Source: a virus. Taken from it: a stretch of DNA of 64,000 nucleotides. Each line of letters opens with the position of its first letter. Position 1 is the stretch's first letter. The position numbers and the translations under genes are program-made. Of this stretch, positions 25,051 through 64,000 are shown in pieces. Location: IMG/VR virus record IMGVR_UViG_3300025000_000077, positions 11,261 to 75,260 of that record, one strand, 5' to 3'. The notes under the pieces were generated by a model that ran no database searches, was not told the origin of the DNA, and saw nothing but the letters and a program-made list of their open reading frames with translations.

Positions 25051-25067
25051 AACGGAGCTAAAAAAAC

Positions 25068-27065: not shown

Positions 27066-27081
27066 AAACAGGAGGTATAAA

Positions 27082-31761: not shown

Positions 31762-31763
31762 AT

Positions 31764-42623: not shown

Positions 42624-42627
42624 GCTG

Positions 42628-46497: not shown

Positions 46498-46695
46498 ATG
46501 TCCATAGAATCAATAACCAAATTTAGAAACTTACTCCAAGACGGCATCGACTTTAGAGAGAAAATACTCTTTCCAAAAAACCCAATAATGGAAATCTCAC
46601 AGAGTATCAACGACCAGGAAGTTACGCGAAGAGAACAGGCCCTCCTAAAGTGTATCCTCGCGCAGTTTGATAAAACATTCACGGTGGAAGAATGA
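46498..46695 (+). CDS. Hypothetical protein
   Basis: Preceded by GAACGGAGCTA. Confidence 0.55.
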   Translation: MSIESITKFRNLLQDGIDFREKILFPKNPIMEISQSINDQEVTRREQALLKCILAQFDKTFTVEE

Positions 46696-47303
46696 CATCT
46701 AAATTCTGCCCATGCTGCAAGAAAACACTCGATCTCAATCTCTTCGGGGTCCGCAACGAAAAGCCCTCACCCTATTGTCTATCATGCACCCGGATAAAAA
46801 CAAAAGCCAGATACCACCGAGACTTCAAAAAAATAGCAGCCCGGAAACATGCTAAATACGTCCTTAATCACCCCATAAAAAAAACACACGTGTATATACC
46901 TCTCAAAATGCATCCACCACTCGGCACAGTCCTTAAGAGATGCGAAAAATGCCATACCACATTGTATGTATGTCCAGAATCTAAAAATGAAACCTGCGGG
47001 AAATGCGGGGCATCCTATGATGTCAAAAAAACATTAAGCGATACTAGGAGAACGAGGGGCGGGTTTAAATTGGTTCCATCTGAGCCCGTGAGAGCTCTTT
47101 ATATTCCCGAGGTCTTGACTTACATCCAGGCGAAGGGAGAAACCTACATTACTCAGATATCGAACCATTTCGGACGGCCACGGTCCACGGTGAGAAATTA
47201 TATTCGAGTGATGGAAACAGAAGGGTTAGTATCCATCGAAATGAACGGAGGGTATGCTAATATTCGGTTGACCAGTAGGGGGGTTTCCGAGTTATCGGCT
47301 TGA
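46692..47303 (+). CDS. Zn-finger plus winged-HTH transcription regulator
   Basis: Several CxxC pairs; C-terminal YITQISNHFGRPRSTVRNYIRVMETEGLV. Confidence 0.7.
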   Translation: MTSKFCPCCKKTLDLNLFGVRNEKPSPYCLSCTRIKTKARYHRDFKKIAARKHAKYVLNHPIKKTHVYIPLKMHPPLGTVLKRCEKCHTTLYVCPESKNETCGKCGASYDVKKTLSDTRRTRGGFKLVPSEPVRALYIPEVLTYIQAKGETYITQISNHFGRPRSTVRNYIRVMETEGLVSIEMNGGYANIRLTSRGVSELSA

Positions 47304-47378
47304 TTTTTTTAGCAAAAAAATAAATACAGTTAACGCGTTTTATATATTAATTACTTTTTTTTTAAAACAGGTAATCAT

Positions 47379-47807
47379 ATGGCATACCAGAAAAAACCCC
47401 GGAAGATCCCTTCGAATTCTGTTAATTCCGGTATTTTCAAATGGACCCCAAAACGTAAAAAAGCCGCAAAACTGTTATCAGACGGCACTAAAAATTATAC
47501 AGAAGTTTGTGAAGAAGTCGGAATTAACGCCGATACTCTTTTAGAATGGCGTAAACATCGTGAATTTTGGCAAGAAGTAGATAAATGCACTTTTGAAAAT
47601 GAACAGGTGACAACTGCCTCCATTATCAGAGTAGTTTTAAAATCACTTCGAATAAAAGAATGTTATGTTTCTGATGACCGCAGTACTCATTTAGACTATC
47701 TTAAGTTTCTCAAAGATATTTTACCAGAGGACACTAAAGAAGACGACGATAAATTAAAAGAACTCGCAGATGCTATCATGAACAGCGCAAAGATGATAGG
47801 TAAGTAA
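47379..47807 (+). CDS. terS: Terminase small subunit
   Basis: N-terminal HTH; directly upstream of terL. Confidence 0.75.
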   Translation: MAYQKKPRKIPSNSVNSGIFKWTPKRKKAAKLLSDGTKNYTEVCEEVGINADTLLEWRKHREFWQEVDKCTFENEQVTTASIIRVVLKSLRIKECYVSDDRSTHLDYLKFLKDILPEDTKEDDDKLKELADAIMNSAKMIGK

Positions 47808-47808
47808 C

Positions 47809-49083
47809 ATGGCATTCAAACCTGGAATCTTTTCTGAAAAACAGATTGATGTGATGGCAAACTGTGACATGGGTATAAATTCTTTAGTAGGGTCCGTCAG
47901 ATCTGGTAAAACAATCGCATCGCTCCTTGCGTTTTTAATTCGCATAATGGAATACCCCGAATGTAACATAATGCTGATAGGGAAATCAGATAAAACGTTA
48001 TATAGGAACGTCCTGATGCCCCTAAAGGACATCGTAAGACCATCTAATTTTAAGTACAATCGAATGACAGGTGAAGGCGTCCTCTATAAAAAATACAATT
48101 TTTACACGGCTGGGGCATATGATGAAAAATCCCTTGAAAAAATCCAGGGTATTACACTCGCGCTGGCATACGGTGATGAAGTCACCACATGGCCGGAATC
48201 GTTCTTCCAGATGTTGTTATCTCGGTTGTCAGAGAATAACGCGAAGTTCATTGGAACCATGAATCCAGGGGGGCCCTACCACTGGTATAAAGTAAATTTC
48301 CTCGATAGACAGGATAGAATATCCTTACGAAATTGGAATTTTTTAATAGAAGAAAATAAGAACCTGTCTCCGGAATATGTTACAAAGTTGAAACAATATT
48401 ATACAGGCGTTTTTTATAAAAGATACATATTGGGCATGTGGGTCCTCGCGGAAGGCGCAATTTATGACATGTTCTCGGAAGAAAAACACGTTGAAACAGT
48501 CAGGCAGGACGTTTGGGCCTCGTGTCTCTCCAAATATGTTTCAATAGACTACGGCACTAGCAACCCCTGTGTTTTTCAATTATGGGGCCACAACAACAAT
48601 AAACGATACCTAAAAAAGGAATATTACTACGACTCAAAAGAACACGGCAGGCAGAAAACAGACGCAGAATACGCCTCCGATCTTGTTAATTTCATCGGAA
48701 ATGAAATGATCCAAAGCGTGATAGTGGACCCGTCGGCAGCTTCCTTCAAGGTGGAACTCAATAATAGGGGACTATGTGTCGAAGATGCCGACAACGACGT
48801 CCTTGACGGAATTAGAGAAGTATCTACTGAGCTATCCCAGGATAAAATACAGATTGATCCATCCTGCGTGAACACCATAAAAGAATTCTCCGGGTATGTT
48901 TGGGATACAAAAGCAGGGGAACGGGGAGAAGACAAACCGTTAAAACAGTCCGACCACGGGATGGATAGCTTGAGATATTATATAAAGTCGGTTAAAATGT
49001 ATAACTTCGGTATGGATTCTCGACAAGAGGAAGTAGGTTATGGTTATTCCGAGTACACAGATGAAATCTATAACAACTATTGA
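47809..49083 (+). CDS. terL: Terminase large subunit (PBSX family)
   Basis: GSVRSGKT, YGDEV, TMNP, IDYGTSNP, VDPSAASF, DHGMDSLRY. Confidence 0.96.
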   Translation: MAFKPGIFSEKQIDVMANCDMGINSLVGSVRSGKTIASLLAFLIRIMEYPECNIMLIGKSDKTLYRNVLMPLKDIVRPSNFKYNRMTGEGVLYKKYNFYTAGAYDEKSLEKIQGITLALAYGDEVTTWPESFFQMLLSRLSENNAKFIGTMNPGGPYHWYKVNFLDRQDRISLRNWNFLIEENKNLSPEYVTKLKQYYTGVFYKRYILGMWVLAEGAIYDMFSEEKHVETVRQDVWASCLSKYVSIDYGTSNPCVFQLWGHNNNKRYLKKEYYYDSKEHGRQKTDAEYASDLVNFIGNEMIQSVIVDPSAASFKVELNNRGLCVEDADNDVLDGIREVSTELSQDKIQIDPSCVNTIKEFSGYVWDTKAGERGEDKPLKQSDHGMDSLRYYIKSVKMYNFGMDSRQEEVGYGYSEYTDEIYNNY

Positions 49084-49160
49084 AAACGTTTTTATCCGAT
49101 GACATCAATATAATTCTAGAGTAGTCTCCCACATTTCTTAAAAAAACGAATATCCCCCCG

Positions 49161-49197
49161 GGGCAGTTTTTCAAGGACTGCCCTTCTTTTCTCTTTT
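49161..49197 (+). terminator. Hairpin plus pyrimidine tract after terL
   Basis: GGGCAGT-N9-ACTGCCC followed by TTCTTTTCTCTTTT. Confidence 0.55.
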
Positions 49198-49514
49198 ATA
49201 TTCTGATATCCATCAACTGTTTTATATTACTTAGTACCGGATATTTCCACCCATACCCCATAATTTCAATATCCACGAGTTCATCGAACAGGTCACGGGA
49301 CTGTTCAGGGGTGAGAGTTAATTTGTGGGAGGTCGAAAGGACGAGTTTCATTGTTTATTCACCGCCGTTCAAATATTCAGCAATCGTTTTAATGGTCTTA
49401 GCCTGCACGTCCTGGGCTCGCGCGTAGTCCACAAATAATCCAGATAATTCTTTCATTTGTCCTTCGATGCCATTCAGTTCACGTTCTAATGTTTCAACTC
49501 TTTTGAGCAGCTCT

Positions 49515-49745
49515 CTATCGTTTCCGAACATTTTTTAATTCCCCCGATGCATTCTTTTTAACCTTTTCCACGATCAGCCCAGCCGGAACAGTATAAACAA
49601 TTGTCCCATTTGAATTATCAATGAGTGCATATCCTGTCTTCGTTTCTTTGATATAATCGGCTTTTATTTCATCTATAAAAATTTTGGACCCAATGTTTAT
49701 AATGTCAGTGTGTGTTGCAACAAGGGATACTTTGAATATTGACAT
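49515..49745 (-). CDS. Hypothetical protein
   Basis: Member of a run of coupled small minus-strand genes. Confidence 0.4.
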   Translation of the reverse strand: MSIFKVSLVATHTDIINIGSKIFIDEIKADYIKETKTGYALIDNSNGTIVYTVPAGLIVEKVKKNASGELKNVRKR

Positions 49746-49750
49746 TTTTT

Positions 49751-49972
49751 TTATTCCCCCTTCTTCCCAAGTTCTCTTAATACATCCCGCATAATCCCAT
49801 TCATAACCTCTTTAGCCTCCTCGGAAACGTCAGGAACATAAAACGCAAATGCTACAGGGTGATCGTGAATATTTGATTTATCACCTATTTTTATAAGTTC
49901 TCCACCATGTTCTTTTACAATTTTACTGTCGTTGGTTACTTTTATAATATCCATGTTTTTATTCCTCCTCAT
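49751..49972 (-). CDS. Hypothetical protein
   Basis: Member of a run of coupled small minus-strand genes. Confidence 0.4.
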   Translation of the reverse strand: MRRNKNMDIIKVTNDSKIVKEHGGELIKIGDKSNIHDHPVAFAFYVPDVSEEAKEVMNGIMRDVLRELGKKGE

Positions 49973-50285
49973 CTTCCTTATTCAACTGCTTCGATATTCA
50001 TCACTACGCACATATACTGAAATGGGTTATCGTACCTGCAAGCCATTAATACTTCTTCTTCTTTCGGAACTTTCCCATTGACGCACTTATCAATTGCTTC
50101 GCAGATGTTACATGAACACATTGTTTAAGCCCTCATAATAGCCGACGAAACCGAATCAAGCTCAACTCTCTTCCCACATGACGGGCATTCTCGCGCCCAG
50201 GTGTCGGCAGTTACTTTTGTGTTTCCTTCTACTGTTATTATTTGTCGTGTCCCGCATTTGCATGGGTAGTACATGTTGTATAGGC

Positions 50286-50528
50286 TCATTTTGATCCCTT
50301 CTTTCTTTTACATTCCGCAAGTTCCTTTTTTAATAACATATTCTCTTTTTCAAGATCAGCGTTCCTCTTTTTTAAACATTCATTCTCTGACTTCTCGCTT
50401 TTTAATAAATCGTTTTCTGCTACAATGATCCGAATCATCCCGTCGTCTGTTGGATTTCCATATTCTTCCCCCCGTTTACGGAGGTCATTAACTGTATATT
50501 CATTTACTCTAATCTGTTTTAATGACAT
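50286..50528 (-). CDS. RHH-like DNA-binding protein with coiled coil
   Basis: KQIRVNEYTVNDLRKRG...TDDGMIRII; TATA box ~25 nt upstream. Confidence 0.55.
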   Translation of the reverse strand: MSLKQIRVNEYTVNDLRKRGEEYGNPTDDGMIRIIVAENDLLKSEKSENECLKKRNADLEKENMLLKKELAECKRKKGSK

Positions 50529-50559
50529 AGCTACCTATACACATTCATTACATATAAAT

Positions 50560-50596
50560 GTTACTATCTGTAACTAACGGCGTTACTGTTGGTAAC
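50560..50596. promoter_or_regulatory. Tandem operators GTTAC-N5-GTAAC between divergent promoters
   Basis: GTTACTATCTGTAAC (50560-50574) and GTTACTGTTGGTAAC (50582-50596). Confidence 0.6.
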
Positions 50597-51322
50597 AAAC
50601 TATAAATATAACTTATGCGTATATAGGAGTAGGTTAGGGGCGTAATGCCCTGCTACAGTAAGAAAGGAGTATTGAAAATGTGCAATCATGTTTTAGGTTT
50701 CGGAAATCCAGTTCAATTAGCCTGTAAACTATGCGGAGAATTGGCTACAAAAAATTACAATTCTGGATTATACAGATGTCTAAATAAAGACTGTTCTAAT
50801 TATAAATTTAGTGACGGGACGCGAATTAAAAACCAGTTGAATAATTTTGAATGGAGAGATTATAAAGAAACCGAGGGTGTGGAATAAAATGATCCAAGAA
50901 ACACAAGAATTCAGCATCAAACTTGAACAGTTAAGCAGACTTGCAAATAAAATAATCTACAACGAAACAACACCTGAAAACCTGAGAGAATTGGCGAAGC
51001 AGGCGGTTGTTATGGCGGAAATGTTGGAAATGGAGTGATTTAAAAATGACCTCACGAACAAAACAAGTAACATTCACACTAACCGAGAGACAAACTGAAT
51101 TAGTATATATAGCACTACACAATGAAATTTGTGAATACCAAGACAACCCGGACAAGGCATGGCAGAATAAAAGCAAAGATCAAGATGATAGGAGAGCGGC
51201 ATTAAAAATACTACATGAGGTATTGCCGAGAGGGTACCATAAGACGGAGGATTAAAAGTGACTGAAATATACAGAAGAACTCGCAGATACAAATCAAGAA
51301 GCCTGTTCAGGATGTGGAACGC

Positions 51323-52596
51323 ATGAGTCATTATGGAAACGATGCCATCTATCTGCTACTGTTTGCAATATTATTGCAGCTTCGTGGGATATTAGATAAT
51401 ACTGGATTCATGGGATTCTTAGTGTTTTCAGTATTTGCAATAATACTATCTTTTTGGGAGAAATAAAAATGAATCCAATACGAAAACTAAAACAACTAAT
51501 CGGCTCAACTTTTGGCTCATTATGGGTATGTATGATAGTTATTGCGGGAGTTGTGTTTTTGATAGTTAAGCGGATGATGAGAAAATGATGTTTGAGTTAC
51601 CTGAAATATACGGGCAGATGTGTGTTATTGCGTCCTTGTTATGGTTTGTCGGGTTTATAATTACACTTTATTCATTTTATTGGATACGGAAAAATGAAAA
51701 GAATGGGGTGAGTAGAGGAAAATGACTGAAGAACAAATGACATATAAAAACATCGATGGGAATATATTAAAATTTATATATTACATAATACTGCCTCCTG
51801 CTCTTGTATGTGCTTTGATCGTGATGAACAAAATATTAACGTGGTTGTGTTTCTTGGTTATTGAGAGGATCTGATGAGAAAATGATAAGAATATGTCTAC
51901 TCCTCATGATGATATTAGTTTCAATTATGATGCTTATGTCATTAATCGCGGGCAATGGATACATGTTAGTTTCATTGGTTTTTGCAGGGTTTGTTTGTTT
52001 ACTTTTTATGTTTTCAGGGAGAAGATAACAGGAGTTAAAATCATGTTTAAATTTCAAAAGAGGGAATATTTGTATATCTCAATAGGCATCATTGCATCTA
52101 TTATGGCTCTTATCCTAAGAAGTGCATACACACTTGATCCTCAGGACACTGGATTTGTAGCTTTTGTAATTACACTTGTTTCTTATAATTTGTTGGTTGG
52201 GAAGTTGGTTAGAAAATGACTGCTCATATAAACTTCAAAGAGAGACTAAGAAAACATGCTGAGTTTATATACTTCACTTATGTTTCATTCCTACTGATCT
52301 TGCTATTTCTCGTTATTCAGGGGTGCTTTTTAGGCATGGGTGACATCGTGGGATATATTGGGGTCGTGGGGTCTTTGGTTGTGGAGTATTATATATTAAG
52401 ATATTTAATAAAAAATAGGAAACATGGAGGGTTGTAAATGACTGAATTAGCATTTGAAAGTACGAACCTTATTGATTTTACCAATGTGTCTACAACTGCC
52501 CGTGTTTTGGGTAGTATGCCATTGACAACGATGGTGATCATTTCTTTATGTATAGGAATAATATTAGGATGTGTAGTTTTCAAATTAATGAGATGA
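51323..52596 (+). other. Array of eight small membrane-protein genes (39-73 aa)
   Basis: 51323-51466, 51469-51588, 51585-51725, 51722-51874, 51882-52028, 52043-52219, 52216-52437, 52438-52596. Each has 1-2 hydrophobic helices; tightly coupled. Confidence 0.7.
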
Positions 52597-52782
52597 GATT
52601 TAAAAGAAAAAAGAAGTGGAAAAACGGTTTAACTTAATTCCGCTTTTCGTTATATTAATATTTTTATAAAAATCAAAACGGTATTTTAAAAACGCATTTC
52701 CTTAAACTAAAAAGAAAGTTGAAATCATCTGATTTTTAAAAGAAAAAAGAAAGTCAATTTTCTAAAAGAAAAAAGAAAAAGA

Positions 52783-53217
52783 TTAAATCAAATTCTTCTT
52801 TTCTTCCATTATTCCAATCATTTCCTGAAATTCCTGTGAATCTTTTCCATGATTAGAATAAGCGTTTGTAACGTCTATAGCAGCGTTAAGATAAGCAATA
52901 TAGGCAACGTTAACCTCCGCTTCCACTGCATTACCATCTTTGTATTGTTTTGCGTAGAATCTTTCATCCAGGATATATTCTCTAGCGTCAAATGCAGAAA
53001 TATACCCAGCTTGCATATTATTAATAACATTTAATACGTTTGTTGCATCGTCCTGCCGAAAGTTAAGTTTTTCTTCGTGCGTTTCTCCGGATAAGCTCTG
53101 GTCTACATCGTTGTTCAAAATATAAGGTGCAGATATAGCACCCGTGCTTATCACTCCAAGCACAGCCAATACAGTATAAATTAATTTTGGGTCTAGCCCT
53201 GTAATCATTTCGCTCAA
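52783..53217 (-). CDS. Single-TM exported protein at the end of the T4SS-like operon
   Basis: N-terminal hydrophobic helix, helical ectodomain. Confidence 0.6.
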   Translation of the reverse strand: MSEMITGLDPKLIYTVLAVLGVISTGAISAPYILNNDVDQSLSGETHEEKLNFRQDDATNVLNVINNMQAGYISAFDAREYILDERFYAKQYKDGNAVEAEVNVAYIAYLNAAIDVTNAYSNHGKDSQEFQEMIGIMEEKKNLI

Positions 53218-53699
53218 TTTTTCACCACCGGGATAAATACTCTAAAACCGTAAACGTCTTTTGTATCTCCGATCCATATTACACCATTTTCTGAGATCTT
53301 AGGTCTCTTGTGTTTGTTTTCCCCTCTTTCTTTCCTATATTCAATCCAATCCATTTTATGAAACATTTTATAATTATTACATTCATCTGTTCGCCCGTTG
53401 TCTATTACCTGAAGAAATACGATTGCATCCTTATTACCCTGACTTCTACCGACTCCTATTCTTTTCTCATCTATTATATGGCACTCTATTTCCTCCCAGT
53501 TGTCAGTATCAATTGTATGATACTCACCAACTGCATTAGAGTCATTATACTTAGAAGTTTTATTCTTCATTAGATCACTTGAAACATTATTCTGTTGTGT
53601 TCGGTTATAAGCGTTTGCAACATCCCCACAGTCCACGGGCACACTCACCAATCCGTCAATACTCACAGCGGAAGAGGAAAAAGAAAAAAGAAAACTCAC
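53214..53699 (-). CDS. Hypothetical protein (start uncertain)
   Basis: Coupled within the operon. Confidence 0.45.
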   Translation of the reverse strand: MSFLFSFSSSAVSIDGLVSVPVDCGDVANAYNRTQQNNVSSDLMKNKTSKYNDSNAVGEYHTIDTDNWEEIECHIIDEKRIGVGRSQGNKDAIVFLQVIDNGRTDECNNYKMFHKMDWIEYRKERGENKHKRPKISENGVIWIGDTKDVYGFRVFIPVVKN

Positions 53700-56533
53700 T
53701 CACACACCCCCTCAGTAAGAGTACCATTTGCAGCGGCGACTTCTCCGGGCTTTAAATTTGTTCTAGTCGGGTTAATAGTCCCGTCCTGAGCAAAACAGGA
53801 CTCCTCCTGCTCAGAATCGTCTTCGGTTTGTGCCTCGATTTCATCCTCTTTTTGCAATCTTTCCAGTTCTTTTTTAACATCAAATTCTGGAATTTCTATC
53901 TTAAATGATTGAATAAATTCTCCAAGTTTTGCGCCGCGTGTAACGCAGAAATCCTCCCCGATTGCGCTTTTAACTTTTGTTTCGTTTACTGCTGCCCGGA
54001 CATCGGATTCGTTTTTCTGTTGACAGACGCATCTCCAGATATCACAGTGTTTGAGATGGTTGTTTTTCTGTGTCCTTAACCTTCCTATACTCCTACTTCC
54101 TGGGTGAGCATATTCTAAGCCTAGTCGTTTACCGGTAGGGGTAATGCAAGTAACATCCGGGTCCTCTTCGCCTCCCTGGTCGCCCCATGTATTGATTACT
54201 ACATCCCTGCATCCAACAATAATACATTCTCCACCCATCAGACATTTTGTAACCCAATGGTCTTTACTTTCCCCGTTAATCAGATCGAGATTTGCAATAT
54301 CATTTGATAGATAATTAACTTTTGAAAGGTAATCTGTGGCAGGGCTGATCTTAGGGTTTATTGTAAATCCTTTGAGTTCAATGTTTTTCTGTTTCTTAAT
54401 CCAGTTTTTATTTAGCACTCCAAATGTATCTACAATATACTTTAAACCGGGGTGAATTAGCTCATACTCTGGATCAAAATAGTCCTTCCTTGATACTGGT
54501 ATTTCGTTTTCTTCGTCGTCTTCTGAAACCTCTGGGGCATCCTCTCCAAAGAATACTTTTCTTTCGGTGGCAAGTGGAATAACTCTTCCTGGTACTCTCT
54601 TCTGACCGTAGAAATAGAACCTGCCTTTTCCAGATCTGGATAGATATTTCCTATCTTCATCATCAATTGGGAACTCTCCTGCAAGCTCGTCTATGTCTGC
54701 GGGCTTCATCCCACACATGAAGATAATTGACGCACAATTGCTTTTTACTACTGGCAAGATGGGTTTCATACCTTTCATGTCCTGACCAATTAGCAGAAGA
54801 CTATTTCCAGAGGACATGAATTCTCTGTTAAGTGATGGCAAATATTCCTGCATACCTGGGTTTTTGAGAATTTTTGGAGCTTCGTCGAATGCTATAATGT
54901 ACCTGCCTTTCTTGACTAAAGCCTCTTTTGAGCCTACTTTGATCTTAGAATTGATGTAACTTACTAAGAGAACAGTTATGGCATCCTGATATTTTTCTGG
55001 AATGTCTGAAAGATCGACTACCGTATATTTATTCGAGACATCGAATTCTTCTTCATTTTCCTCAAGCTCTTCATCCATCCAATGTAGGGACTCACCCTTT
55101 TCAAAATCTACAAGATAACCGAGTAATGCTTTAAGAGAAGACCTCATCTGCTTATGTTCAGGATCTTCATCGGTAGACCATTCTTTAATCAATTGTGCAT
55201 AATCCTGTATACGGGGAACTGATGTTTGATCTTTCCATTTTTCTGGGTTTGTAGGGTTTTTATCTTCGTCAAGATATCCTTCTCTGATGTAAAACCCGGT
55301 CAATGATTTCTTACAAGCTTTTTGCATAGGAGAACTAAACGCGGACCCGATCAGCATATAGAAGAAATATAGTGCCGTTTCTTTTGCTTTTATGTATGCT
55401 GAATACATGGCATCTGTATTATCCCCATGTAAAATAGGGTCCCATGTGATTTTAAGCGGTCTTAGCCCCCTTCCTTTAGGACCCACATTTATTAAATTCC
55501 CTTCAAGTGCTTTAATAAAGTTTACTGCATCCGTCCCGAAATCCTGTTTAGGTGAGATATACCAAAATCCAATATTAAGAGCAACAGCGTTTTTTAACAA
55601 ATTTAAGACAAGTGTGGTTTTTCCCTGCCCCGAACTTCCCAAACATGCAAGGTTTGCGTTCTCGGCAAGTGGGCTTTCAGGGTCCCAAAACAAAGGAATT
55701 CCAGCGTCTTTACCTTCATCAAGATAACCGAGGTGTATTCCCTTTTCATCTATCGTTTTTATAGGGGTTCTTCCAGGCCAAAAAGCAGCAGCAGTATTAG
55801 AAAGAACTGTAATCATGTGTTCTCTCATGATTTCATTTGATGGGATTAGGGCTTTTAAAGCCCTGACTTGCCCACCAAAACATGAATCAGTATTAATTCC
55901 TGAGCTTTTGAATTCGGTCTGAGTTTCCGCGATGGTGTAAGCAGTATCATCTTCTGTAGGAGTGCTAATACCTGCAACAACCAACTGTTTTAATATAGAA
56001 TGTTCTCCCTTATAGGACTGAGCAAAGAATGATCTCAGGTCGTCTTCCTGCCAGTCGTAGACATCCGATGAGTTCCCGCTCTGGTTTAATTCTACTTTCC
56101 TGGCAGTTTGTATTTTCTTCTTTTCGTTTTTGTTCTCTCGATTTATTTCTTCATTGCTAGGTTTATATATGATCTGAGTTACTGTGAAATCGACGTGCTT
56201 CTCTTTTGCAATTTCATACATTTTATCAATTGCTTGGAGATCAGCACTGTATTTTATTGCTGTCTGGGTGGGATCTACCTCGTCGGATACTGCTATCGTG
56301 AATAAATCCATGTCCTGAAATTCATTTATTTTTACTCCTAGCCCGTCAGGAGTAGCCTGGATCTTCCCAGGACAACACTGTAACGCGGACATTGACAGCA
56401 TTATTCTCTCAGCTTCCCCTTTATTGAATCTCTCCCACTCATCAAGGACGTTTTCGTATAACTCAAGGAAGGAGCCTTTACAGGCTTCAAAAAGGTATTT
56501 TTTCAATCTCTTAGATAATATCTTCATCTTCAA
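53696..56533 (-). CDS. virB4: VirB4-like conjugation/T4SS ATPase with C-terminal PD-(D/E)xK-like extension
   Basis: LFWDP...NLACLGSSGQGKT (Walker A), ISPKQD, IAFDEA (Walker B), REFMSSG...IGQ, GKGRFY. Confidence 0.8.
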   Translation of the reverse strand: MKMKILSKRLKKYLFEACKGSFLELYENVLDEWERFNKGEAERIMLSMSALQCCPGKIQATPDGLGVKINEFQDMDLFTIAVSDEVDPTQTAIKYSADLQAIDKMYEIAKEKHVDFTVTQIIYKPSNEEINRENKNEKKKIQTARKVELNQSGNSSDVYDWQEDDLRSFFAQSYKGEHSILKQLVVAGISTPTEDDTAYTIAETQTEFKSSGINTDSCFGGQVRALKALIPSNEIMREHMITVLSNTAAAFWPGRTPIKTIDEKGIHLGYLDEGKDAGIPLFWDPESPLAENANLACLGSSGQGKTTLVLNLLKNAVALNIGFWYISPKQDFGTDAVNFIKALEGNLINVGPKGRGLRPLKITWDPILHGDNTDAMYSAYIKAKETALYFFYMLIGSAFSSPMQKACKKSLTGFYIREGYLDEDKNPTNPEKWKDQTSVPRIQDYAQLIKEWSTDEDPEHKQMRSSLKALLGYLVDFEKGESLHWMDEELEENEEEFDVSNKYTVVDLSDIPEKYQDAITVLLVSYINSKIKVGSKEALVKKGRYIIAFDEAPKILKNPGMQEYLPSLNREFMSSGNSLLLIGQDMKGMKPILPVVKSNCASIIFMCGMKPADIDELAGEFPIDDEDRKYLSRSGKGRFYFYGQKRVPGRVIPLATERKVFFGEDAPEVSEDDEENEIPVSRKDYFDPEYELIHPGLKYIVDTFGVLNKNWIKKQKNIELKGFTINPKISPATDYLSKVNYLSNDIANLDLINGESKDHWVTKCLMGGECIIVGCRDVVINTWGDQGGEEDPDVTCITPTGKRLGLEYAHPGSRSIGRLRTQKNNHLKHCDIWRCVCQQKNESDVRAAVNETKVKSAIGEDFCVTRGAKLGEFIQSFKIEIPEFDVKKELERLQKEDEIEAQTEDDSEQEESCFAQDGTINPTRTNLKPGEVAAANGTLTEGVCE

Positions 56534-57392
56534 ATCTCCCGTCTCTTGAATCGTGATAGTTGTAAGTTATGACACTATGGAATACTTTGTGAATCTGCCA
56601 TGCCCATTTAAGCCGCTTGTGTTTTATTTTGTTATCCTTCAAAGCTCTTGAGATGTTCTTTGAAGCTATTTTCAGGTTCTGGATAGCTACTTTTTTTGAA
56701 GCTGTGTATGGTAGGTAATACACTAGATAATTTCCATAAGTTTTTATGTTGGCAGTCTCGATGAATTTCTGATGTTCATATAATGACTGCCTGACGATGG
56801 ATGGCATCCCTTCTTTATTCAGTTCGATTTTTATAGGCTCTGCATAGTCTTTAAGGTCATTTCTTATTGTCAATGTTGATTTCAATACAGACTGATCCAT
56901 CAATCCGGTGAACATCTTTTCCACGGATTGCAGGAAAGGAACGATTTTGTCAGGTTTGAACGCCTGCAATTCATAGAATATAGCCCAATTGTTAGGTCTT
57001 TTTTTGCTGTGGAAATACTCTACGAATCCAAGAAAGTGTATCTTTTTTATATTGCTAACATCTCTTACTTTTTTAAGTCCTTTCTCAGAAAACTTCTCTA
57101 TTGTGTCTTCCCCGGATTGCATCAACATCAGGAATCTTATGTATCTCTCGAATTTGTATAACCTCGCTGAACTTCTGCCGATGTAGAGGAAGACTAAAGC
57201 TTCTATAATGGTCTGAGCTAAAACAATTTTATTTGTAAGGTGATAACCTACCGTCCGGCTGCCCACAAGCAGAGTAATACTTAACAGGAAAAGAAGAAAC
57301 AGCAATAAGTATTGCTGATTTTTCCTCATACTGTAAAAAGTGACATCGATTTTTCGCGTCACTGTCAATGGAGTTGAATCTTGAGTCACCAT
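56511..57392 (-). CDS. Two-TM protein, VirB3/PrgI-like position
   Basis: Two N-terminal TM helices plus soluble domain; overlaps the virB4 start. Confidence 0.5.
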   Translation of the reverse strand: MVTQDSTPLTVTRKIDVTFYSMRKNQQYLLLFLLFLLSITLLVGSRTVGYHLTNKIVLAQTIIEALVFLYIGRSSARLYKFERYIRFLMLMQSGEDTIEKFSEKGLKKVRDVSNIKKIHFLGFVEYFHSKKRPNNWAIFYELQAFKPDKIVPFLQSVEKMFTGLMDQSVLKSTLTIRNDLKDYAEPIKIELNKEGMPSIVRQSLYEHQKFIETANIKTYGNYLVYYLPYTASKKVAIQNLKIASKNISRALKDNKIKHKRLKWAWQIHKVFHSVITYNYHDSRDGRFEDEDII

Positions 57393-58471
57393 AACCCCTT
57401 CGTGTATTTTATAATTCTAGCTGCTCTGAGTATTACCCCAAGCAAAAACCCGCATAGGATCTCAATTATAGCCATAACAATTGGCCACAGTAATGCAACT
57501 GCAACAGTAATCACACTTGCATAAAGTACCATTCTCATATTTGATTCTGCAATTCCCGTTAAATCGAATGTGGCTATTACCTTACCCATCATTGTATCTG
57601 TTTGAGGGTAAGTTTCTGCAATGTTTTTGATTGCTATATTCGAGTACCACAAAACCAGTGGGCGCATAAAAACCGCAGACAGAAACCATGCAGCTAATAT
57701 TTTCGCTATATACTCGGAATAAAACATTGCTAAACAAAACATTAGTATAATTCTGAATGCGTAAGCCGCGAAGAAGTTAATATATTCAATTCTTAGCAGG
57801 AAGAAGCTCGAACATGCACTATATGCCCACGACTCCCAATAATAAACACTGGGTGCGGCGGGAGTAACATTTAAAAACTCAAATGCGTCAAGCGTCAACC
57901 CTGCGCTTAATATATGTTCTAAATCTAAGACGGCTGCAATTATCGGTAATGATAATATTGCGAGTCCGATTAGTTTTAACAAAGTTCCAAGCCATACAGT
58001 ATAATCATGAATCTCATTGTGTCCTGTGAATTTTTTATTTATTTTTTCCACCGTTTCCGGCATGTATTTTTGTAGCATCGACAGCCCGAATGTAAGCCCG
58101 GATATGAAAACGGTAGCCACTGAGAACCAGACTAGATCGGATGCTAATTTATCCCGCACCCATTTTACTTCATAAGGGTTCTGATTGGCTAACGCGATCA
58201 TATACACGACTTTCTGAGCAGGTGTTAGGTTTTCGGAATCAGTTGCATTTCCAAATGTTACACCAAAATTGTCCCTGAGATTTTTTTCAGCTCTGTAAAC
58301 AAAAAACTGTTCTATCCCTCTGGATACTACTTCTATGCTAGTGTCGAGAGGGGCAGCACTAGCAGGAGCCGCTAAAGATGTGAAAAAAAGAAGAAGTACA
58401 AAAAAAGATAAAACAGAAGAACTTTTCATATCAACCTCTCCCCTCAAAAATTGAGTTATCAATAATCCCAT
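57386..58471 (-). CDS. Polytopic membrane protein, VirB6/TrbL-like (probable start 58429)
   Basis: Signal peptide plus about six hydrophobic segments; lies between the pilin-like gene and virB4. Confidence 0.6.
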   Translation of the reverse strand: MGLLITQFLRGEVDMKSSSVLSFFVLLLFFTSLAAPASAAPLDTSIEVVSRGIEQFFVYRAEKNLRDNFGVTFGNATDSENLTPAQKVVYMIALANQNPYEVKWVRDKLASDLVWFSVATVFISGLTFGLSMLQKYMPETVEKINKKFTGHNEIHDYTVWLGTLLKLIGLAILSLPIIAAVLDLEHILSAGLTLDAFEFLNVTPAAPSVYYWESWAYSACSSFFLLRIEYINFFAAYAFRIILMFCLAMFYSEYIAKILAAWFLSAVFMRPLVLWYSNIAIKNIAETYPQTDTMMGKVIATFDLTGIAESNMRMVLYASVITVAVALLWPIVMAIIEILCGFLLGVILRAARIIKYTKGLW

Positions 58472-58830
58472 GTGAGAGAATCAAGTGCTGTCGAGGTACA
58501 CGCCATAAACAGAACTACCATGATCACTCCCACAAACATTCCTTTAAACGCTGATGATCTTTCTTCGTCGTCACCTGTGTAATATTTATAAAGACATCCT
58601 GCGAAATAAAGGAAAATTGTAGCCACTAAAGCTAAAGTTCCCCAATTGCTCCCCTTGTCTACTGGATTTTTAAATGCAGATTTCTCTAATTCCTCTTTAG
58701 CACCTTCCGGTTTAATGAAATCGTTTATTTTAAATGAATTGTCTCCATCGGCTGCTGCTCCCACCATCGGAGCAAACATCATCAATAGGCTCATAACTGA
58801 AAATACAATTTTTAGAGTTTTTGCGTTCAT
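58459..58830 (-). CDS. VirB2/TrbC-like pilin
   Basis: Signal peptide, then TM-GDDEERSSAFK-TM hairpin topology; 123 aa. Confidence 0.6.
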   Translation of the reverse strand: MNAKTLKIVFSVMSLLMMFAPMVGAAADGDNSFKINDFIKPEGAKEELEKSAFKNPVDKGSNWGTLALVATIFLYFAGCLYKYYTGDDEERSSAFKGMFVGVIMVVLFMACTSTALDSLTWDY

Positions 58831-58929
58831 GTTTCCATACCTGTTGCGTAAAATGCCTTTTTACTTAACAACACATTCAAACTATTTATAATTTATGTAG
58901 CAGATGATAAAAAAAGAAATGGGAGTAGT

Positions 58930-61900
58930 TTAATAGAATCCAAACATGTTTTTAAGTCGTCTCCATAAACTCCCAATTGTCAAGAGTAAAGCACCCCAAA
59001 ATACAAGATATGGATAAAACCACCATTTAATAGTGTCGACTGGTAGTTCTTTCTCCACTATTTTAAACTCTATATCCTCATACTCCCTATACGGACTCGA
59101 TGCCGTGACCTTAATATTTTCCTTAGAATATCTCCCCGATAGAGTGATCCAATCTCCTGTATGAATACTCGTCCCTTCGTCAGTCCAGTATTCGAGCCTT
59201 TCGTATTCAGTAAACTTCACTCCTGCCTCTGTAGTATTCCGAGTGCCAACCATGAAGATATGTTTTGAAGTGCCGTTCTTTGTCGTGTAAGTTATATCTT
59301 TCAGCCCGATTTTAGAGACCTTCATTTCGAAATGAGCAGGATATTGATAGACAATGCCTTCCACTTTATCAGGTTGCTCTAGGATCTTAGGAACAGGCTT
59401 GTAAGAGTTCTTGAATACATACGTTGATGTCCTTAGTTTTCCCTTTTCCCTCTTCCCGGTTACATGGTTAGTTTTCATATTATACCATGTAGTATTAACT
59501 ACCATTTTGATGTACGCAGTATCGTTTTTGAAGGTAATATTATAACTTTTATCTATCCTTTTAATTCCACCTGACCACATGTCAAGAGAGGGATTTCTGA
59601 TAACCCTAGAATAAACAATTGCATCATCCGGGCCTGTGACATAATATTCATCGTCTATTTTCGTAAGGTTATTCCAGCCGATAATTGCAACTGCTCCGGC
59701 TACTTTTCCGTTTTCTGTGAGATCATCGCGCTTGATAGTATATTTTAGGTCTGCTGCTGTCTGATGAGTGATTGCAGTTTCAGGATATTCAAGATTGAGA
59801 AGATACTGGATATCATAGATTATATCGAATATCTCCTTTGACTGCTCAACCGTTGGCTGTTTCCCTTCCTCGACTTCCTTTATCTCATCCAGAATCTCAA
59901 CCGGAATCCCTGACGTCTCAAACTCTTCATCTCCAATTATTTCATTATCGTGAACATAGACATTATCACCAAGTCCTAACCCTGCTGCATCCAGGAGAAT
60001 AGCTTCAAGCCCACAGTTTATAATTTTGTTATATGCTATTTCAATATTATTGGTATGGATAATTTCAGTCTTATTAGATCCACCACCCTTACTAAATCCC
60101 TGATCTCCTGCCTGTACTCCGTTTTCTCCGTGGAGATAAGCCCCGTTAGCGTTTGATCCTGAGTATGAGAAAAGAGTATTATAGACGGCTTTTGAATACT
60201 CACAATTATCAAACCTAAGACAGTCGGCGGTAATACCAGCAGCCTCATTGTTTTTCATTAGTCCGTATCGCACACAGACAAAATATATACTGTCATGCTG
60301 GCAATTGCTAATGAAATTATCAGAACACTGAACATATTCAGCGAATCTAACATGTATCCCGTCACTGAAACAGTTTATTATTGTAGTGTCATGAATAATA
60401 ATATTTGAAACGAAATTCTGAGAACTTCCCTGTATTACTATAGCCCTTTCACAATCATGAGAAGTCTTTGAACTTGAATCAGCTAAATCATTATCAAGTT
60501 CTCCACAATTCCCGTCTACAGTTGCTCCTTCAATTGTGATGTCATCATAACCTATTGAATTGATGATGCCTGTAAGCCCCTTAAACCACTGCTTATCTGT
60601 TTTCGAGACTCTTATTATTGCATCAGATTCAAATTTTAGAGTAACTCCTGAGCTTTTGAAATAGATAGGGCCATCAACCCAATACACGCCGGAAGGAAGA
60701 TATACGGTATCCCCACTCTTAGCACGTTTCATAGCCTCGTTTATCTGGACCTGATCAGAGTTACCATCACACCCTGTCACCGTTATGACAGTACCGTCTT
60801 CGTCAACGTCTTTTGCAGGGATAATATCAAGCGGGTGAATGTCATTATCTGGACCTTCATATTCTTCTTCCTCTTCGTCGGTAGGCTCAACCGGCTCATA
60901 ATTAATTATATTAACGTCAGGCTGAACCACTGACCCGCTTTCACTAGCCGTCAATCCAGTTAACGAAATCTTCCCGCCAACATTCGTAAAAGTATTGCCC
61001 TTTATAATAGTATCCCCGCTTGAATGCGAGTTACTATTAACCGCTATTGCTGTTGATTTTACATTCTCAAAAATGTTATTCGATATTTCAAGATTAACCC
61101 CATTAATCAAATAATCAAGAGCAATCCCCTTTGCATTAACATTTTTAAAAGTATTCCCACTAACAATAATATTCTTAAAACTCTCTGTATTCAAATCGAA
61201 TAAATACTGATAAGTGCAGGACTCTTGATAATTATCCTTGATAATCAGAGTGTCACTCGTTCCTGATCCAATCCCTCCATAGATATATCCACTCTCGATA
61301 TGATTATTTTTAATTACATGAACTCCACCGTTTACACTGCCTCGGCGTGCAACTGCTCCGTATCCTCCATATACTTCATTATCTGAGAATTCAGATTGGT
61401 AAGTACCATCAAGAAAAGCGATATAAGCAGGCTTCGGATAGATTTTATTTTTAGTCACAAGATAATCAATTGTCATAGGATGAGCATCAACCACTTGCGC
61501 GCCTGTGAGAGCACCACCGATGAGAGTATTTCCTGTGATTACAACGCCCCTGTTAAGAGCTTTAAAATCCCCCGTCCCGCTCATTATAGTATGTCTGCAA
61601 TTCTCGATGTGATTATTTTCAATGTTAACAAAGGCGGCAGTATCGGCAACCGAGACACCGTAACCGTTTCCCTCATGAACTGAATTATATATTTCATTGT
61701 TTTTGACATCCACGTTAAAACTTGTTATGATTCTAAGGGATGCTTGACCATTATCTTTAAACCAACAGTCGGTAACAGAAGAATCTATACAGTATCTAAG
61801 AGCTAATCCTTCACGGACTCCTGCTGCATCTTTATTTTGGAATCTAATGTTTTCTACATGGATTTCCACGGGTCTAAATACTTCGGTTTTTACGGTTTCA

Positions 61901-62394
61901 GACAGGCTGTAGTCTCTCAGGAGAGGTTCATTCAGAGTTACTGTGTTGTCTTTTACTCCTGTGACTAGATACAGTTCTCCTGTTGTCTGATCCGGGTACT
62001 CTATTGGACACCATTTTACATTTTTCCAGATCCTGACGAGATCGCCTTTTTTGACTGCGGAGGCATCACTAAGGATAACAGTGGAAGAACCTTTCTGAGC
62101 ATTGCTAGAGAGGGACTGAGATGTAATTAGCGTGCCTTCAAGTTGCATCCCGCGTGAGCTTCCGACATCCAGATTAAGAGTTACTTCGCCTTCTCCTTTT
62201 AGGGTTAGGCTCTTTCCTGCTTGGTGAAGCGGTGATGTAATAAAATAAGTCCCGGCAGGGATTGTTATTGTATCTCCTGAGTGTGCGCTGTCGAGAGCTG
62301 CTTGAATGTTTCCGTTGGATACTGTGACATCGGCTGCTGAGGCTATACACGGCAATAAAAGAATGAGAATGAAAGCAATTGAAACGGTTTTCAT
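58930..62394 (-). CDS. Cell-surface adhesin/depolymerase with two beta-helix domains
   Basis: Signal peptide ending ASA; beta-helix 1 nearly identical to 27082..28467; acidic linker; second disaggregatase-like beta-helix; C-terminal TM plus basic tail. Confidence 0.85.
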   Translation of the reverse strand: MKTVSIAFILILLLPCIASAADVTVSNGNIQAALDSAHSGDTITIPAGTYFITSPLHQAGKSLTLKGEGEVTLNLDVGSSRGMQLEGTLITSQSLSSNAQKGSSTVILSDASAVKKGDLVRIWKNVKWCPIEYPDQTTGELYLVTGVKDNTVTLNEPLLRDYSLSETVKTEVFRPVEIHVENIRFQNKDAAGVREGLALRYCIDSSVTDCWFKDNGQASLRIITSFNVDVKNNEIYNSVHEGNGYGVSVADTAAFVNIENNHIENCRHTIMSGTGDFKALNRGVVITGNTLIGGALTGAQVVDAHPMTIDYLVTKNKIYPKPAYIAFLDGTYQSEFSDNEVYGGYGAVARRGSVNGGVHVIKNNHIESGYIYGGIGSGTSDTLIIKDNYQESCTYQYLFDLNTESFKNIIVSGNTFKNVNAKGIALDYLINGVNLEISNNIFENVKSTAIAVNSNSHSSGDTIIKGNTFTNVGGKISLTGLTASESGSVVQPDVNIINYEPVEPTDEEEEEYEGPDNDIHPLDIIPAKDVDEDGTVITVTGCDGNSDQVQINEAMKRAKSGDTVYLPSGVYWVDGPIYFKSSGVTLKFESDAIIRVSKTDKQWFKGLTGIINSIGYDDITIEGATVDGNCGELDNDLADSSSKTSHDCERAIVIQGSSQNFVSNIIIHDTTIINCFSDGIHVRFAEYVQCSDNFISNCQHDSIYFVCVRYGLMKNNEAAGITADCLRFDNCEYSKAVYNTLFSYSGSNANGAYLHGENGVQAGDQGFSKGGGSNKTEIIHTNNIEIAYNKIINCGLEAILLDAAGLGLGDNVYVHDNEIIGDEEFETSGIPVEILDEIKEVEEGKQPTVEQSKEIFDIIYDIQYLLNLEYPETAITHQTAADLKYTIKRDDLTENGKVAGAVAIIGWNNLTKIDDEYYVTGPDDAIVYSRVIRNPSLDMWSGGIKRIDKSYNITFKNDTAYIKMVVNTTWYNMKTNHVTGKREKGKLRTSTYVFKNSYKPVPKILEQPDKVEGIVYQYPAHFEMKVSKIGLKDITYTTKNGTSKHIFMVGTRNTTEAGVKFTEYERLEYWTDEGTSIHTGDWITLSGRYSKENIKVTASSPYREYEDIEFKIVEKELPVDTIKWWFYPYLVFWGALLLTIGSLWRRLKNMFGFY

Positions 62395-62514
62395 TTGTTA
62401 AATTACTCCCCTTGTATATGAGTAGTCTGTATATTAGTACATACGTAATCTATTTATACCTACCTACTCATATACTATACAGTTAAATACGGACACGCGG
62501 GATATTACAACATC

Positions 62515-62658
62515 ATGGCAAAAATAAAAATCACAATGGATGGGTACAAATGCGACAGATGCGGGCATGAATGGGTAAAACGTGGAGAAGAAGAACCCAC
62601 GGTTTGTCCTAAATGCAAAACACCGTATTATAACAGACCAAAGAAACAAAAGGAGTAA
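62515..62658 (+). CDS. 47-aa Zn-ribbon protein (not in ORF track)
   Basis: GYKCDRCGHEW...PTVCPKCKTPYYN. Confidence 0.7.
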   Translation: MAKIKITMDGYKCDRCGHEWVKRGEEEPTVCPKCKTPYYNRPKKQKE

Positions 62659-63330
62659 TTAAAACAAGGTGGAAAGTATGCGATCAGGAGGGATATTTAA
62701 ACTGAATGAATCAAAAATGTCCTATGCAAAGCGCGCAGAGAAGCGATTAAATGAGAGAGTAAAAGAGATTGAAGATTATCATAAGAAGTCGGTGGCAATG
62801 GCTCTTAATTGAGGGTGTGGGGCAATGACAAGAAAATACAGGAAACACTATAATATAATCTCAAAAATAAAGTATATACTGATAGGTGCTGGGCTTACTT
62901 TATTCTCGTGTTATATGTGGCCGGAGAAAGTTATCTTTTGGGGGTGAATTTGAAATGCCTTGTTTTGCAGATCTTGAAATAAAATACAAGGAAGAACAGT
63001 CTGGATTAAGAAATGTAGTAAAGAACGTGAACAAAACGCCCAAAACACACCGGGTTAAATGCACAGGCAAATTCATTCAGAGGAACGCATGATCTTGAAA
63101 AAACTAAAAAAGAACATGATACACGCTGTAACAATTCTGGATAAAAGTAAGGTATATTACCCGTATGAAACCCCCAGGACGTTTGCTGTCTGTTTCGGTG
63201 ATTTTGATTGGAGTACCAGTTCAGATTCGCAATTTGAAAAAATAAAGATACGGGGAATCAAAACACCATTCTGTTGGAAACGGAAAGTAAAGGTTTTAAA
63301 AATGGTTTGTATGTATGACGCGGGAGAACT

Positions 63331-63606
63331 ATGATACACAAAATAAGAACTCACATAAAACAAAATCCCCTTAAATATAAAATTGCCTACATAATAACAA
63401 TGGCAGCAGCAGGACTAACAATCTCAGCCCGTTTAATGGGTGAAGGAATTAGATTAATTGAGGAGAGTGGAGTACCTGAAGAAACTATAAAAGCCATTTT
63501 TGGAGTGGTTTTTAGTGTTATTGGATTGTATCTATTTCTTTATTTCATGGTGAACCCGATGACTAAATTATTCAGAGTATTTAATAAGGAGAATCCTGGA
63601 CGTTGA
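63331..63606 (+). CDS. Two-TM membrane protein
   Basis: Two hydrophobic helices; ATGA overlap with the upstream ORF. Confidence 0.55.
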   Translation: MIHKIRTHIKQNPLKYKIAYIITMAAAGLTISARLMGEGIRLIEESGVPEETIKAIFGVVFSVIGLYLFLYFMVNPMTKLFRVFNKENPGR

Positions 63607-63730
63607 GAGGTAAATATGATTAAAGCATGTCTTAAATGTTTACTTTTCCCAATATGTGACCCCCCGAATAAGGGATATGTAGAAAGCGTGTTGATGTATT
63701 GGGCTGGATGTGTTCCGGAGAGGGGATAAC

Positions 63731-63941
63731 CATGCCTGAATATAATAAAGAACCCCCATCTGTTTATATAGATGGTGTAAAGGTTGGAACAGTGGCGAGC
63801 ATTTCTATTGATGGAAATCCTATAGAAAAACAAATGAAAGAAAGGGGAGAACTCGGAAAAACTCAGCTTGATAAAGTTTATAATATCCATAAGGGGAAGG
63901 AAGGGAAGTTACCAAAGAAATTTAGAAAAGGATGGTCTTAA
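63731..63941 (+). CDS. Hypothetical protein
   Basis: GAGGGG RBS before MPEYNK. Confidence 0.4.
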
Positions 63942-64000
63942 CAATGGCAATGATCACAGACAAAGGAATCGAAGAATTAAATAAACTATCAGAAGAAGAT

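Follow-up and report, generated by a model that had tools for sequence, protein, structure and literature searches.

A stretch of 64,000 nucleotides from a tailed archaeal virus (hereafter the window; bases 11261-75260 of the single 75,260-bp IMG/VR virus record IMGVR_UViG_3300025000_000077) carries at 52783-62394 a cassette of seven co-oriented genes on the minus strand, which very probably encodes a machine derived from a type IV secretion system (T4SS) and native to this virus lineage. In order, the genes specify a membrane-anchored beta-helix protein, a pilin-like protein, a polytopic TrbL/VirB6-like protein, a membrane protein predicted to dock on VirB4, a VirB4-like ATPase extended by a nuclease-like domain, a small soluble protein and a small protein with a single transmembrane segment (Table 1). 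The best explanation of the cassette, which we rate at about an even chance, is contact-dependent movement of DNA between adjacent cells, with the viral genome as the most plausible cargo.

A preliminary description of this DNA had reported a co-oriented, overlapping operon of conjugation-like genes. This is indeed the arrangement seen: the last six genes overlap by 4-23 nt, and a gap of 99 nt with a TATA-like box lies between the first, the beta-helix gene, and the second, the pilin-like gene. The genes listed in that description are all present and hydropathy bears out the membrane features it gave, but it overlooked two other parts, the small soluble protein and the C-terminal domain of the ATPase.

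The ATPase and its partner proteins

The ATPase consists of an N-terminal domain, a P-loop motor (residues ~290-650) and the extra C-terminal domain. Walker A lies at about G299-T307 and Walker B at D550-E551. Residues G299, S301, G302, G304, K305, T307, D550 and E551 are invariant in the close family, and G304, K305, D550 and E551 across 56-70 distant relatives. The best NCBIfam match is to NF045975 (VirB4_plasma, the VirB4 of mycoplasma integrative and conjugative elements, ICEs) with E 2.9e-22. There are weak matches to TIGR00929 (7e-4), TraC and CedB (E 0.022), and Pfam offers only DUF87 (5.7e-7). Scores fall below the curated cut-offs, at 78.2 versus 590 bits for NF045975 and 17.9 versus 643 bits for TIGR00929; the ATPase is a distant VirB4-like protein, outside any curated equivalog. 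A profile search of 1.84 billion representatives retrieved 461 relatives, and among the 56 full-length sequences analysed 53 match the VirB4 model NF045971 (conju_CD1110), 52 VirB4_CagE, 43 CedB and 18 a HerA model (HerA_antiphage).

Structural comparison points the same way. With an AlphaFold model of the ATPase (overall predicted local distance difference test score, pLDDT, 53; motor core better), the best Foldseek match is the VirB4 of Thermoanaerobacter pseudethanolicus (4ag6; E 2.5e-14, TMt 0.70), with TrwK/VirB4 at 2.9e-11 and TrwB at 3e-7. The best HerA (4d2i) reaches 3.8e-8, six orders of magnitude weaker than VirB4. The preliminary assignment as VirB4-like is thus upheld by both Foldseek and the family matches, and the identity that it had named as the alternative, HerA or a packaging ATPase, is rejected. 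No match to the ATPase was obtained by tblastn among 50,697 GenBank phage records, and searches of PDB sequences, with the single sequence and with a profile, gave only a weak match to the IcmO/DotL P-loop. Within the gene, contigs of both sequencing runs read C, G, T and T at positions 54816, 54817, 54818 and 54820 (in 54816-54820), where the window has A, T, G and A, so that record and public contigs differ in a cluster of four bases.

The C-terminal domain is probably a nuclease or nickase of the PD-(D/E)xK type, to judge by its fold class and residue pattern. Every close relative has it (residues ~690-900), as do 45 of the 56 full-length relatives. The 11 lacking it (~820-920 aa) have the classical VirB4 layout and align to the query through their C-terminal parts, and classical bacterial VirB4 proteins in the same alignment are also without it. 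The domain has no Pfam match. Modelled from seven orthologues (overall pLDDT 52, core 70-80), its core has the order alpha-beta-beta-beta-alpha-beta. The Foldseek rows for the model, individually weak (E 0.02-1), consist almost wholly of Mus81, XPF, Hef, NucS, VRR_NUC and restriction enzymes. VIA-align, which is independent of Foldseek, gives Z scores of 7.1-5.0 to VC1899, Can2, AF1548, VRR_NUC, Bax1, Hjc, HindIII and NgoMIV, values (at most 7.1) that are middling and within the common range of the tool. Four residues, H759, D793, E807 and G867, do not vary among the 45 relatives that have the domain; R866 is found in 40 of these and a lysine at 822/823 in 41. The acidic D793 lies at the start of strand 2 and E807 within strand 3, and the lysine lies in the following helix, not in a (D/E)xK triplet.

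The preliminary description had also proposed a VirB6-like polytopic protein and a VirB2-like pilin, and topology, ESM Atlas neighbours and weak matches to pilin hidden Markov models (HMMs) agree with it. By hydropathy, the pilin-like protein of 123 aa begins with a cleavable signal peptide, followed by two hydrophobic helices with a short charged loop between them. Its HMM matches are to NF045849 (Mbov_0395, pilin-like conjugal transfer protein; E 0.006) and PF18895 (T4SS_pilin; E 0.048), the latter also being matched (E 0.2) by the orthologue in locus L001, at 16% identity. In five other loci an open reading frame (ORF) of 113-127 aa with the same pilin-like architecture occupies the same position. 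The VirB6-like protein of 361 aa, conserved at 25-75% identity in six loci, has a signal peptide and five or six transmembrane segments (hydropathy). In the ESM Atlas its ten best named neighbours are all TrbL/VirB6 proteins (PF04610, PF19597, PF19590, PF19478; 0.84-0.89, 166-189 shared features) and its best structural row is a TrbL_3-bearing cluster (TM 0.53), both of which we take as leads only. Neither the protein nor its divergent orthologues match a family in Pfam, NCBIfam or PHROGs, nor is there a match among PDB sequences.

The next protein, of 293 aa, has an N-terminal hairpin formed by a transmembrane segment (27-45) and a second hydrophobic stretch, and a cytoplasmic domain; it is conserved at 30-77% identity in seven loci. 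Its Atlas leads are clusters of PF26593 TraC-like (0.89) and TraC-like/PrgI proteins (0.85). Complex prediction with VirB4 residues 1-660 scored 0.71, against 0.00 for the best of three controls. That mark is reached by 58 of 80 solved complexes and by 2 of 110 mismatched pairs, counts that are approximate, author-built alignments having been used. At least 82% of contacts are shared between runs, the pLDDT of the partner is at least 70, and docking is predicted to occur by strand pairing of residues 168-176 with VirB4 residues 116-124. We therefore predict a VirB3/PrgI-like role for this protein, docked on the N-terminal domain of VirB4. Since VirB3-VirB4 complexes have already been solved, the pass may partly reflect likeness to them. 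Profiles of the pilin-like, VirB6-like and 293-aa proteins found nothing meaningful among PDB sequences.

The two small proteins that follow the ATPase are conserved throughout. Orthologues of the soluble protein occur in all six other loci at 36-53% identity, the shortest being of 124-126 aa and without a transmembrane segment, and a homologue also follows a distant VirB4 in locus L027 (E 3.6e-7; see below). The last protein, of 144 aa, has one N-terminal transmembrane segment by hydropathy and has orthologues in all six loci (23-46% identity) with a conserved C-terminus, ...EKKNLI or ...EKRDKI. Searches of Pfam, NCBIfam and PHROGs with the 293-aa, 161-aa and 144-aa proteins, and with divergent orthologues of each, yielded no credible family.

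At the head of the cassette, the 1154-aa protein comprises a signal peptide, a right-handed beta-helix (residues 29-495), a further beta-helix-like region and a C-terminal transmembrane anchor, and is thus, by hydropathy, the membrane-anchored protein that had been noted upstream of the pilin gene. It matches Pfam Beta_helix (4.2e-18) and NosD (6.6e-8), and PHROG tail-spike families (to 4.4e-25). Over residues 29-495 it shares 74% identity with the N-terminal part of a disaggregatase-repeat protein encoded elsewhere in the window (27082-29166), and 40% with the 665-aa protein next to that one (25068-27065). The orthologues that head the cassette in L002, L004, L005, L007 and L009 all retain both signal peptide and C-terminal anchor.

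Conservation and genomic context

The whole cassette recurs in the same order in five IMG/VR contigs (L001 and L004-L007; 25-40% identity) and in a 60-kb contig of a Methanosarcina metagenome-assembled genome (MAG; 44-79% identity). In L004 it is flanked by homologues of this virus's portal, Mu F, protease/scaffold, major capsid protein (MCP) and lysis genes, and the same 31-kb contig (genome G002) carries a 63%-identical TerL. L001 and L005 have homologues of the head-tail, tail-tube and tape-measure genes in their flanks, L005 having lysis genes too. The present virus also has MCM (74%), the recombinase (87%), MCP and tail genes in common with G004, a 73.5-kb record rated complete in which the cassette spans the contig ends, and the Methanosarcina MAG contig has MCM, tape measure and fibre genes. 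Only cassette and beta-helix homologues were seen in the stretch examined of L007, a 17.6-kb contig. The core cassette genes are, by sequence comparison, under purifying selection: against locus L002 pN is 0.12-0.20 and pS 0.64-0.77 (0.20 and 0.69 for the pilin-like gene), both being reported instead of dN/dS because synonymous sites are saturated for most genes.

This conservation bears directly on whether the cassette belongs to the virus at all. An assembly chimera or a separately bounded inserted element had been named beforehand as what would undo the proposal. Some observations are in keeping with a chimera, or with the recent arrival in the virus of a foreign element such as a piece of an ICE or plasmid. 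Among contigs from the Logan collection none joins TerL to VirB4, there being assembly-graph nodes at ~50.5 and ~53.7 kb; IMG/VR lists the 75,260-bp record as linear and 72% complete; and a start-associated motif of the virus, GAACGGAGC, is absent from 47.3-64 kb (see below). Yet the cassette lies beside homologous virus genes in independent assemblies, including G002 and G004, and identities of only 25-40% with the order kept imply that cassette and virus have long descended together. The borders of the cassette carry neither an integrase nor a transposase, flanking repeats not being searched for, and its GC content (0.36-0.40) resembles that of the adjacent viral regions. Contigs from two samples do tile 44-64 kb, but the four DNA runs concerned all belong to a single groundwater study, possibly the one that yielded this record, and hence are not independent. 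The preliminary description had asked for TerL and VirB4 to be seen on one molecule; the contigs tile the stretch, but none bridges the two genes. The independent evidence is therefore the synteny. The synteny with virus genes in six other assemblies places the cassette, as first proposed, within a tailed archaeal virus genome and effectively refutes a chimera or recent insertion, to which we attach only a minimal probability.

The record itself may be more complete than its annotation implies. Nucleotides 5-130 are identical to the final 126 nt, so that the genome is closed or terminally redundant with a unit of ~75.13 kb; the offset of 4 nt probably hid the repeat from the end-repeat check.

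The host is probably Methanosarcina or a member of its family. Disaggregatase domains are present in the virus, one homologue is named from Methanosarcina sp., the Methanosarcina MAG holds a 79%-identical copy, and relatives occur in 12 of 177 genomes of the family of that MAG. The source appears to be groundwater metagenomes.

More distant cassettes are found on four further contigs of Methanosarcinaceae, L027 (G140:C49), L028 (G127:C6), L029 (G159:C19) and L030 (G155:C14), with an ATPase of 23-29% identity that bears the C-terminal domain in at least three cases. Where the flanks are known the layout is a 7-transmembrane protein, a protein of ~288 aa, the ATPase and a small transmembrane protein, and beta-helix genes lie upstream in three of the four. 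Their neighbours are cellular (alkaline phosphatase, PspA, a phosphate-binding protein, a Y-family polymerase fragment), and the 9-20 kb examined around them contain, beta-helix proteins aside, no homologue of the structural genes of this virus. The unit can thus exist without a virion, and these distant cassettes may be domesticated or part of capsid-less elements. L027 lies beside Orc1/Cdc6 on an 8.9-kb contig which shows no terminal overlap that would mark it as a small circular element.

Possible functions and known systems

Conjugation and plasmid functions were sought throughout the 75,260-bp record, and the absence of relaxase, VirD4 and integrase first noted for the window extends to the whole of it. 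Relaxase families PF03432, PF01076 and PF02486 gave no match, other relaxase families not being searched, and the same was true of the families PF02534 and PF12696 of the VirD4/TraG coupling ATPase and of tyrosine integrases. The ParA/CbiA model touched only the P-loop of the VirB4-like protein, and no ParA or ParB was found. Every ORF of at least 400 aa is accounted for, and the large P-loop ATPases of the genome are the VirB4-like protein, MCM, TerL and Orc1/Cdc6 only. With VirD4 and relaxase not found, the cassette is not a conjugative system by the CONJscan definition, and looks more like the minimal set of the archaeal Ced and Ted systems (see below) than like complete conjugation machinery.

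The closest families are nonetheless conjugative. The monoderm MPF_FATA/FA systems (Bacillota ICEs and plasmids, mycoplasma ICEs) provide the best families for both the ATPase and the pilin-like protein (NF045975 Mbov_0397, NF045849 Mbov_0395, NF045971 CD1110), and have the same order of pilin-like, TrbL/VirB6-like, VirB3/PrgI-like and VirB4 genes and, likewise, no outer-membrane parts. The cassette differs from them in having no VirD4-type coupling protein, relaxase or peptidoglycan hydrolase, in being archaeal and viral, in its nuclease-like motor domain, and in a score of 78 versus 590 bits. Archaeal conjugative plasmids and ICEs encode, in addition, an ATPase of the TraG/VirD4 type, and are not known to possess genes for capsid, terminase or tail. 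Those of the Sulfolobales (pNOB8-type) and Nitrososphaeria (ICEs) share with the cassette VirB4-type ATPases and the lack of a recognisable relaxase (PMC9905601). Phage-plasmids (P1, N15 and SSU5 groups) resemble the present virus as virus genomes with plasmid-type functions, here Orc1/Cdc6, MCM and a small serine recombinase with no tyrosine integrase found, but are defined by plasmid replication and partition rather than by a mating pore (PMC7969092). The preliminary description had pictured a virus-plasmid hybrid spreading by cell contact. The T4SS-derived cassette in a tailed virus survives from that picture, while spread by cell contact and plasmid maintenance are unsupported by the data. 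We found no paper on a T4SS-like module in archaeal tailed viruses in a literature search that did not extend to subscription journals.

Two further comparisons are with systems of hosts. Ced (Sulfolobales, Aeropyrum) and Ted (Thermoproteales) are minimal archaeal T4SSs with a VirB2-like pilin, a VirB6-like channel and a VirB4-like ATPase but no relaxase or VirD4 (PMC9905601), and TedC has a cleavable signal peptide, as does the pilin-like protein here. Ced and Ted are chromosomal, whereas this cassette is in a head-tail virus with a probable mesophilic methanogen host and shows no BLAST-level similarity to them. It adds the C-terminal nuclease-like domain of the ATPase, the beta-helix protein, the 293-aa docking protein and the two small conserved proteins. 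Ced imports DNA; the composition of the cassette fits the Ced/Ted importers as well as a stripped-down exporter, so that transfer may run in either direction.

The cassette might accordingly serve an infected or lysogenic cell in taking up DNA from its neighbours, for the benefit of repair or recombination or to supply the virus with nucleotides and recombination partners, with no export of the virus. Such import would account for the minimal gene set, and the CedB model is matched by 43 of the 56 relatives of the ATPase, as well as weakly by the protein itself. Like Ced and Ted in their hosts, the distant cassettes of Methanosarcinaceae have cellular genes as neighbours, and a nuclease on a cytoplasmic motor could process incoming DNA. 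The best family matches, however, are to the monoderm conjugative VirB4 proteins (NF045975, NF045971) and not to CedB. Purifying selection for import in at least seven virus genomes is hard to explain, and a surface protein sharing the beta-helix domain of the virus suggests targeting of the virus's host cells. We consider import improbable and rank it last, behind a role in the envelope or egress not involving DNA and, in first place, contact-dependent DNA transfer.

How the parts could work together in such transfer can be outlined, although we infer assembly of the machine, DNA as its cargo, the direction of transfer, the nuclease activity and the role of the beta-helix protein from the parts themselves. 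In an infected or carrier cell the VirB6-like protein would form a membrane channel and the pilin-like protein would build a VirB2-type pilus or stalk, while the 293-aa membrane protein would tie a hexameric VirB4-like motor to the channel. Fused to this motor, the nuclease-like domain would cut or nick DNA in the relaxase's stead, after which the DNA could be threaded through, and the membrane-anchored beta-helix protein would bind or digest the envelope of the neighbour to establish contact. The net outcome would be a contact-dependent passage of DNA, most plausibly the viral genome, in Methanosarcina aggregates. DNA is favoured as cargo by the fusion of motor and nuclease and by the family origin of the parts. 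The full proposal is that the virus has a second, virion-independent mode of transmission, in which a mating pore hands the viral genome to neighbours in Methanosarcina aggregates, the VirB4-fused nuclease replaces the relaxase and a donor-displayed beta-helix enzyme of the tail-fibre type opens the recipient's matrix. In this complete form we regard it as tentative and rather doubtful.

Several points weigh against contact-dependent DNA transfer. Neither a coupling ATPase (VirD4) nor a relaxase was found in the record with the Pfam families searched. The pilin, VirB6-like and VirB3-like assignments draw on weak HMM matches, language-model neighbours and architecture, with no significant alignments; the nuclease-like domain has fold matches of only middling strength (Z at most 7.1), its lysine lying away from the usual (D/E)xK position; and both structure models have low overall confidence (pLDDT 52-54). 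Ced, of the same minimal composition, imports rather than exports DNA (PMC9905601). In L004 and L005, finally, the cassette directly follows the lysis cassette on the same strand, which fits a role in the envelope or in egress too.

That last arrangement, in which the lysis cassette upstream is disaggregatase-like, leads to the other alternative: a T4SS-derived pilus or secretion apparatus that, together with the beta-helix enzyme, remodels methanochondroitin or the S-layer, in virion release, receptor destruction and superinfection exclusion, adhesion or protein export. The first gene of the cassette is in effect a membrane-anchored copy of the tail-fibre/disaggregatase beta-helix domain, and T4SSs that secrete proteins are known. 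On the other hand protein-secreting T4SSs also need a coupling protein, not found here, and the nuclease-like domain, with acidic and basic residues conserved in 45 relatives, points to a nucleic-acid substrate. Related cassettes also occur without lysis or virion genes nearby. We think such a role unlikely.

Viruses and conjugative elements are usually treated as two separate routes of DNA self-transfer, and finding a conserved mating-pore cassette in a complete tailed virus would make the distinction less sharp in archaea. If true, contact-dependent transfer would give the virus a way through cell aggregates embedded in matrix, into which virions penetrate poorly. The fusion of VirB4 with a nuclease-like domain is also a concrete candidate, amenable to testing, for the DNA-processing step that is missing where archaea transfer DNA without a relaxase, a question still unsettled for Ced, Ted and the conjugative plasmids of archaea (PMC9905601). 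Genetic tools exist for Methanosarcina, so the idea is directly testable.

Putative control signals and remaining genome content

Table 1. Coordinates of the cassette genes, associated signals and other features in the window
Feature	Position	Strand	Remark
Membrane-anchored beta-helix exoprotein, 1154 aa	58930-62394	minus	
VirB2-type pilin-like protein, 123 aa	58459-58830	minus	
TrbL/VirB6-like polytopic membrane protein, 361 aa	57386-58471	minus	start probably residue 15
Membrane protein predicted to dock on VirB4 N-terminal domain, 293 aa	56511-57392	minus	
VirB4-like ATPase, 945 aa	53696-56533	minus	
C-terminal restriction-endonuclease-like domain of ATPase	53819-54496	minus	residues ~680-905
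Small soluble protein, 161 aa	53214-53699	minus	core ~120 aa; listed GTG start probably too early
Single-transmembrane protein, 144 aa	52783-53217	minus	last gene of the cassette
TATA-box-like 9-mer TATAAATAG	62450-62458	minus	~55 nt upstream of beta-helix gene start
Second TATAAATAG	58882-58890	minus	~50 nt upstream of pilin gene start
Tape measure	16593-19004		
Run of beta-helix and disaggregatase-domain proteins (tail-fibre/disaggregatase genes)	19007-29166		
Small serine recombinase (resolvase + helix-turn-helix, HTH; 219 aa)	31764-32423	minus	
MCM	42604-44706		

The 9-mer TATAAATAG occurs in the window in these two copies only, both on the minus strand. From their positions we take the copies as putative promoters, the second being a candidate separate promoter for the unit running from pilin to ATPase. 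The motif GAACGGAGC has 20 matches (at most one mismatch; 7.4 expected by chance), all of them in 2435-47251, and none at the same stringency in 47252-64000, the part of the window from TerL to the cassette. The cassette and the small-ORF region would seem, then, to lie outside the GAACGGAGC regulon. Taken with the two copies of TATAAATAG, this distribution suggests, weakly, that control of the cassette is separate from that of the other viral operons. Directly upstream of the beta-helix gene and on the same strand (62464-62649, minus) is an ORF of 61 aa with a zinc-ribbon-like CxxC...CxxC pattern, possibly a small regulator of the cassette.

The head-tail character of the virus is seen in its TerL (47809-49083; Pfam Terminase_6N, ~42% identity to phage terminases), which, with MCM and the resolvase, is located in the window as originally listed. 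Ahead of the window start, the record encodes a Mu F-like protein, another disaggregatase-like gene and Orc1/Cdc6. The small serine recombinase could be an invertase or a multimer resolvase, and is not an integrase of the usual type. With the adjacent 233-aa gene (the pair spanning 31060-32423, minus) it is among the best-conserved genes relative to the 73.5-kb record G004, at 87% and 66%, respectively.

Between 46853 and 47315 Logan contigs at depths of 87 and 38, against 12-16 and 4-7 for their neighbours, skip 461 nt, and there is a variant with a 1-nt deletion at 47346; this repeated or variant element overlaps an HTH gene (46692-47303). The structural region at 6473-12843 encodes a 900-aa protein with an Mtd_N (major tropism determinant) N-terminus and BNR repeats, and a 1223-aa protein with a GH18 chitinase-like domain, DUF2341 and a laminin-G domain.

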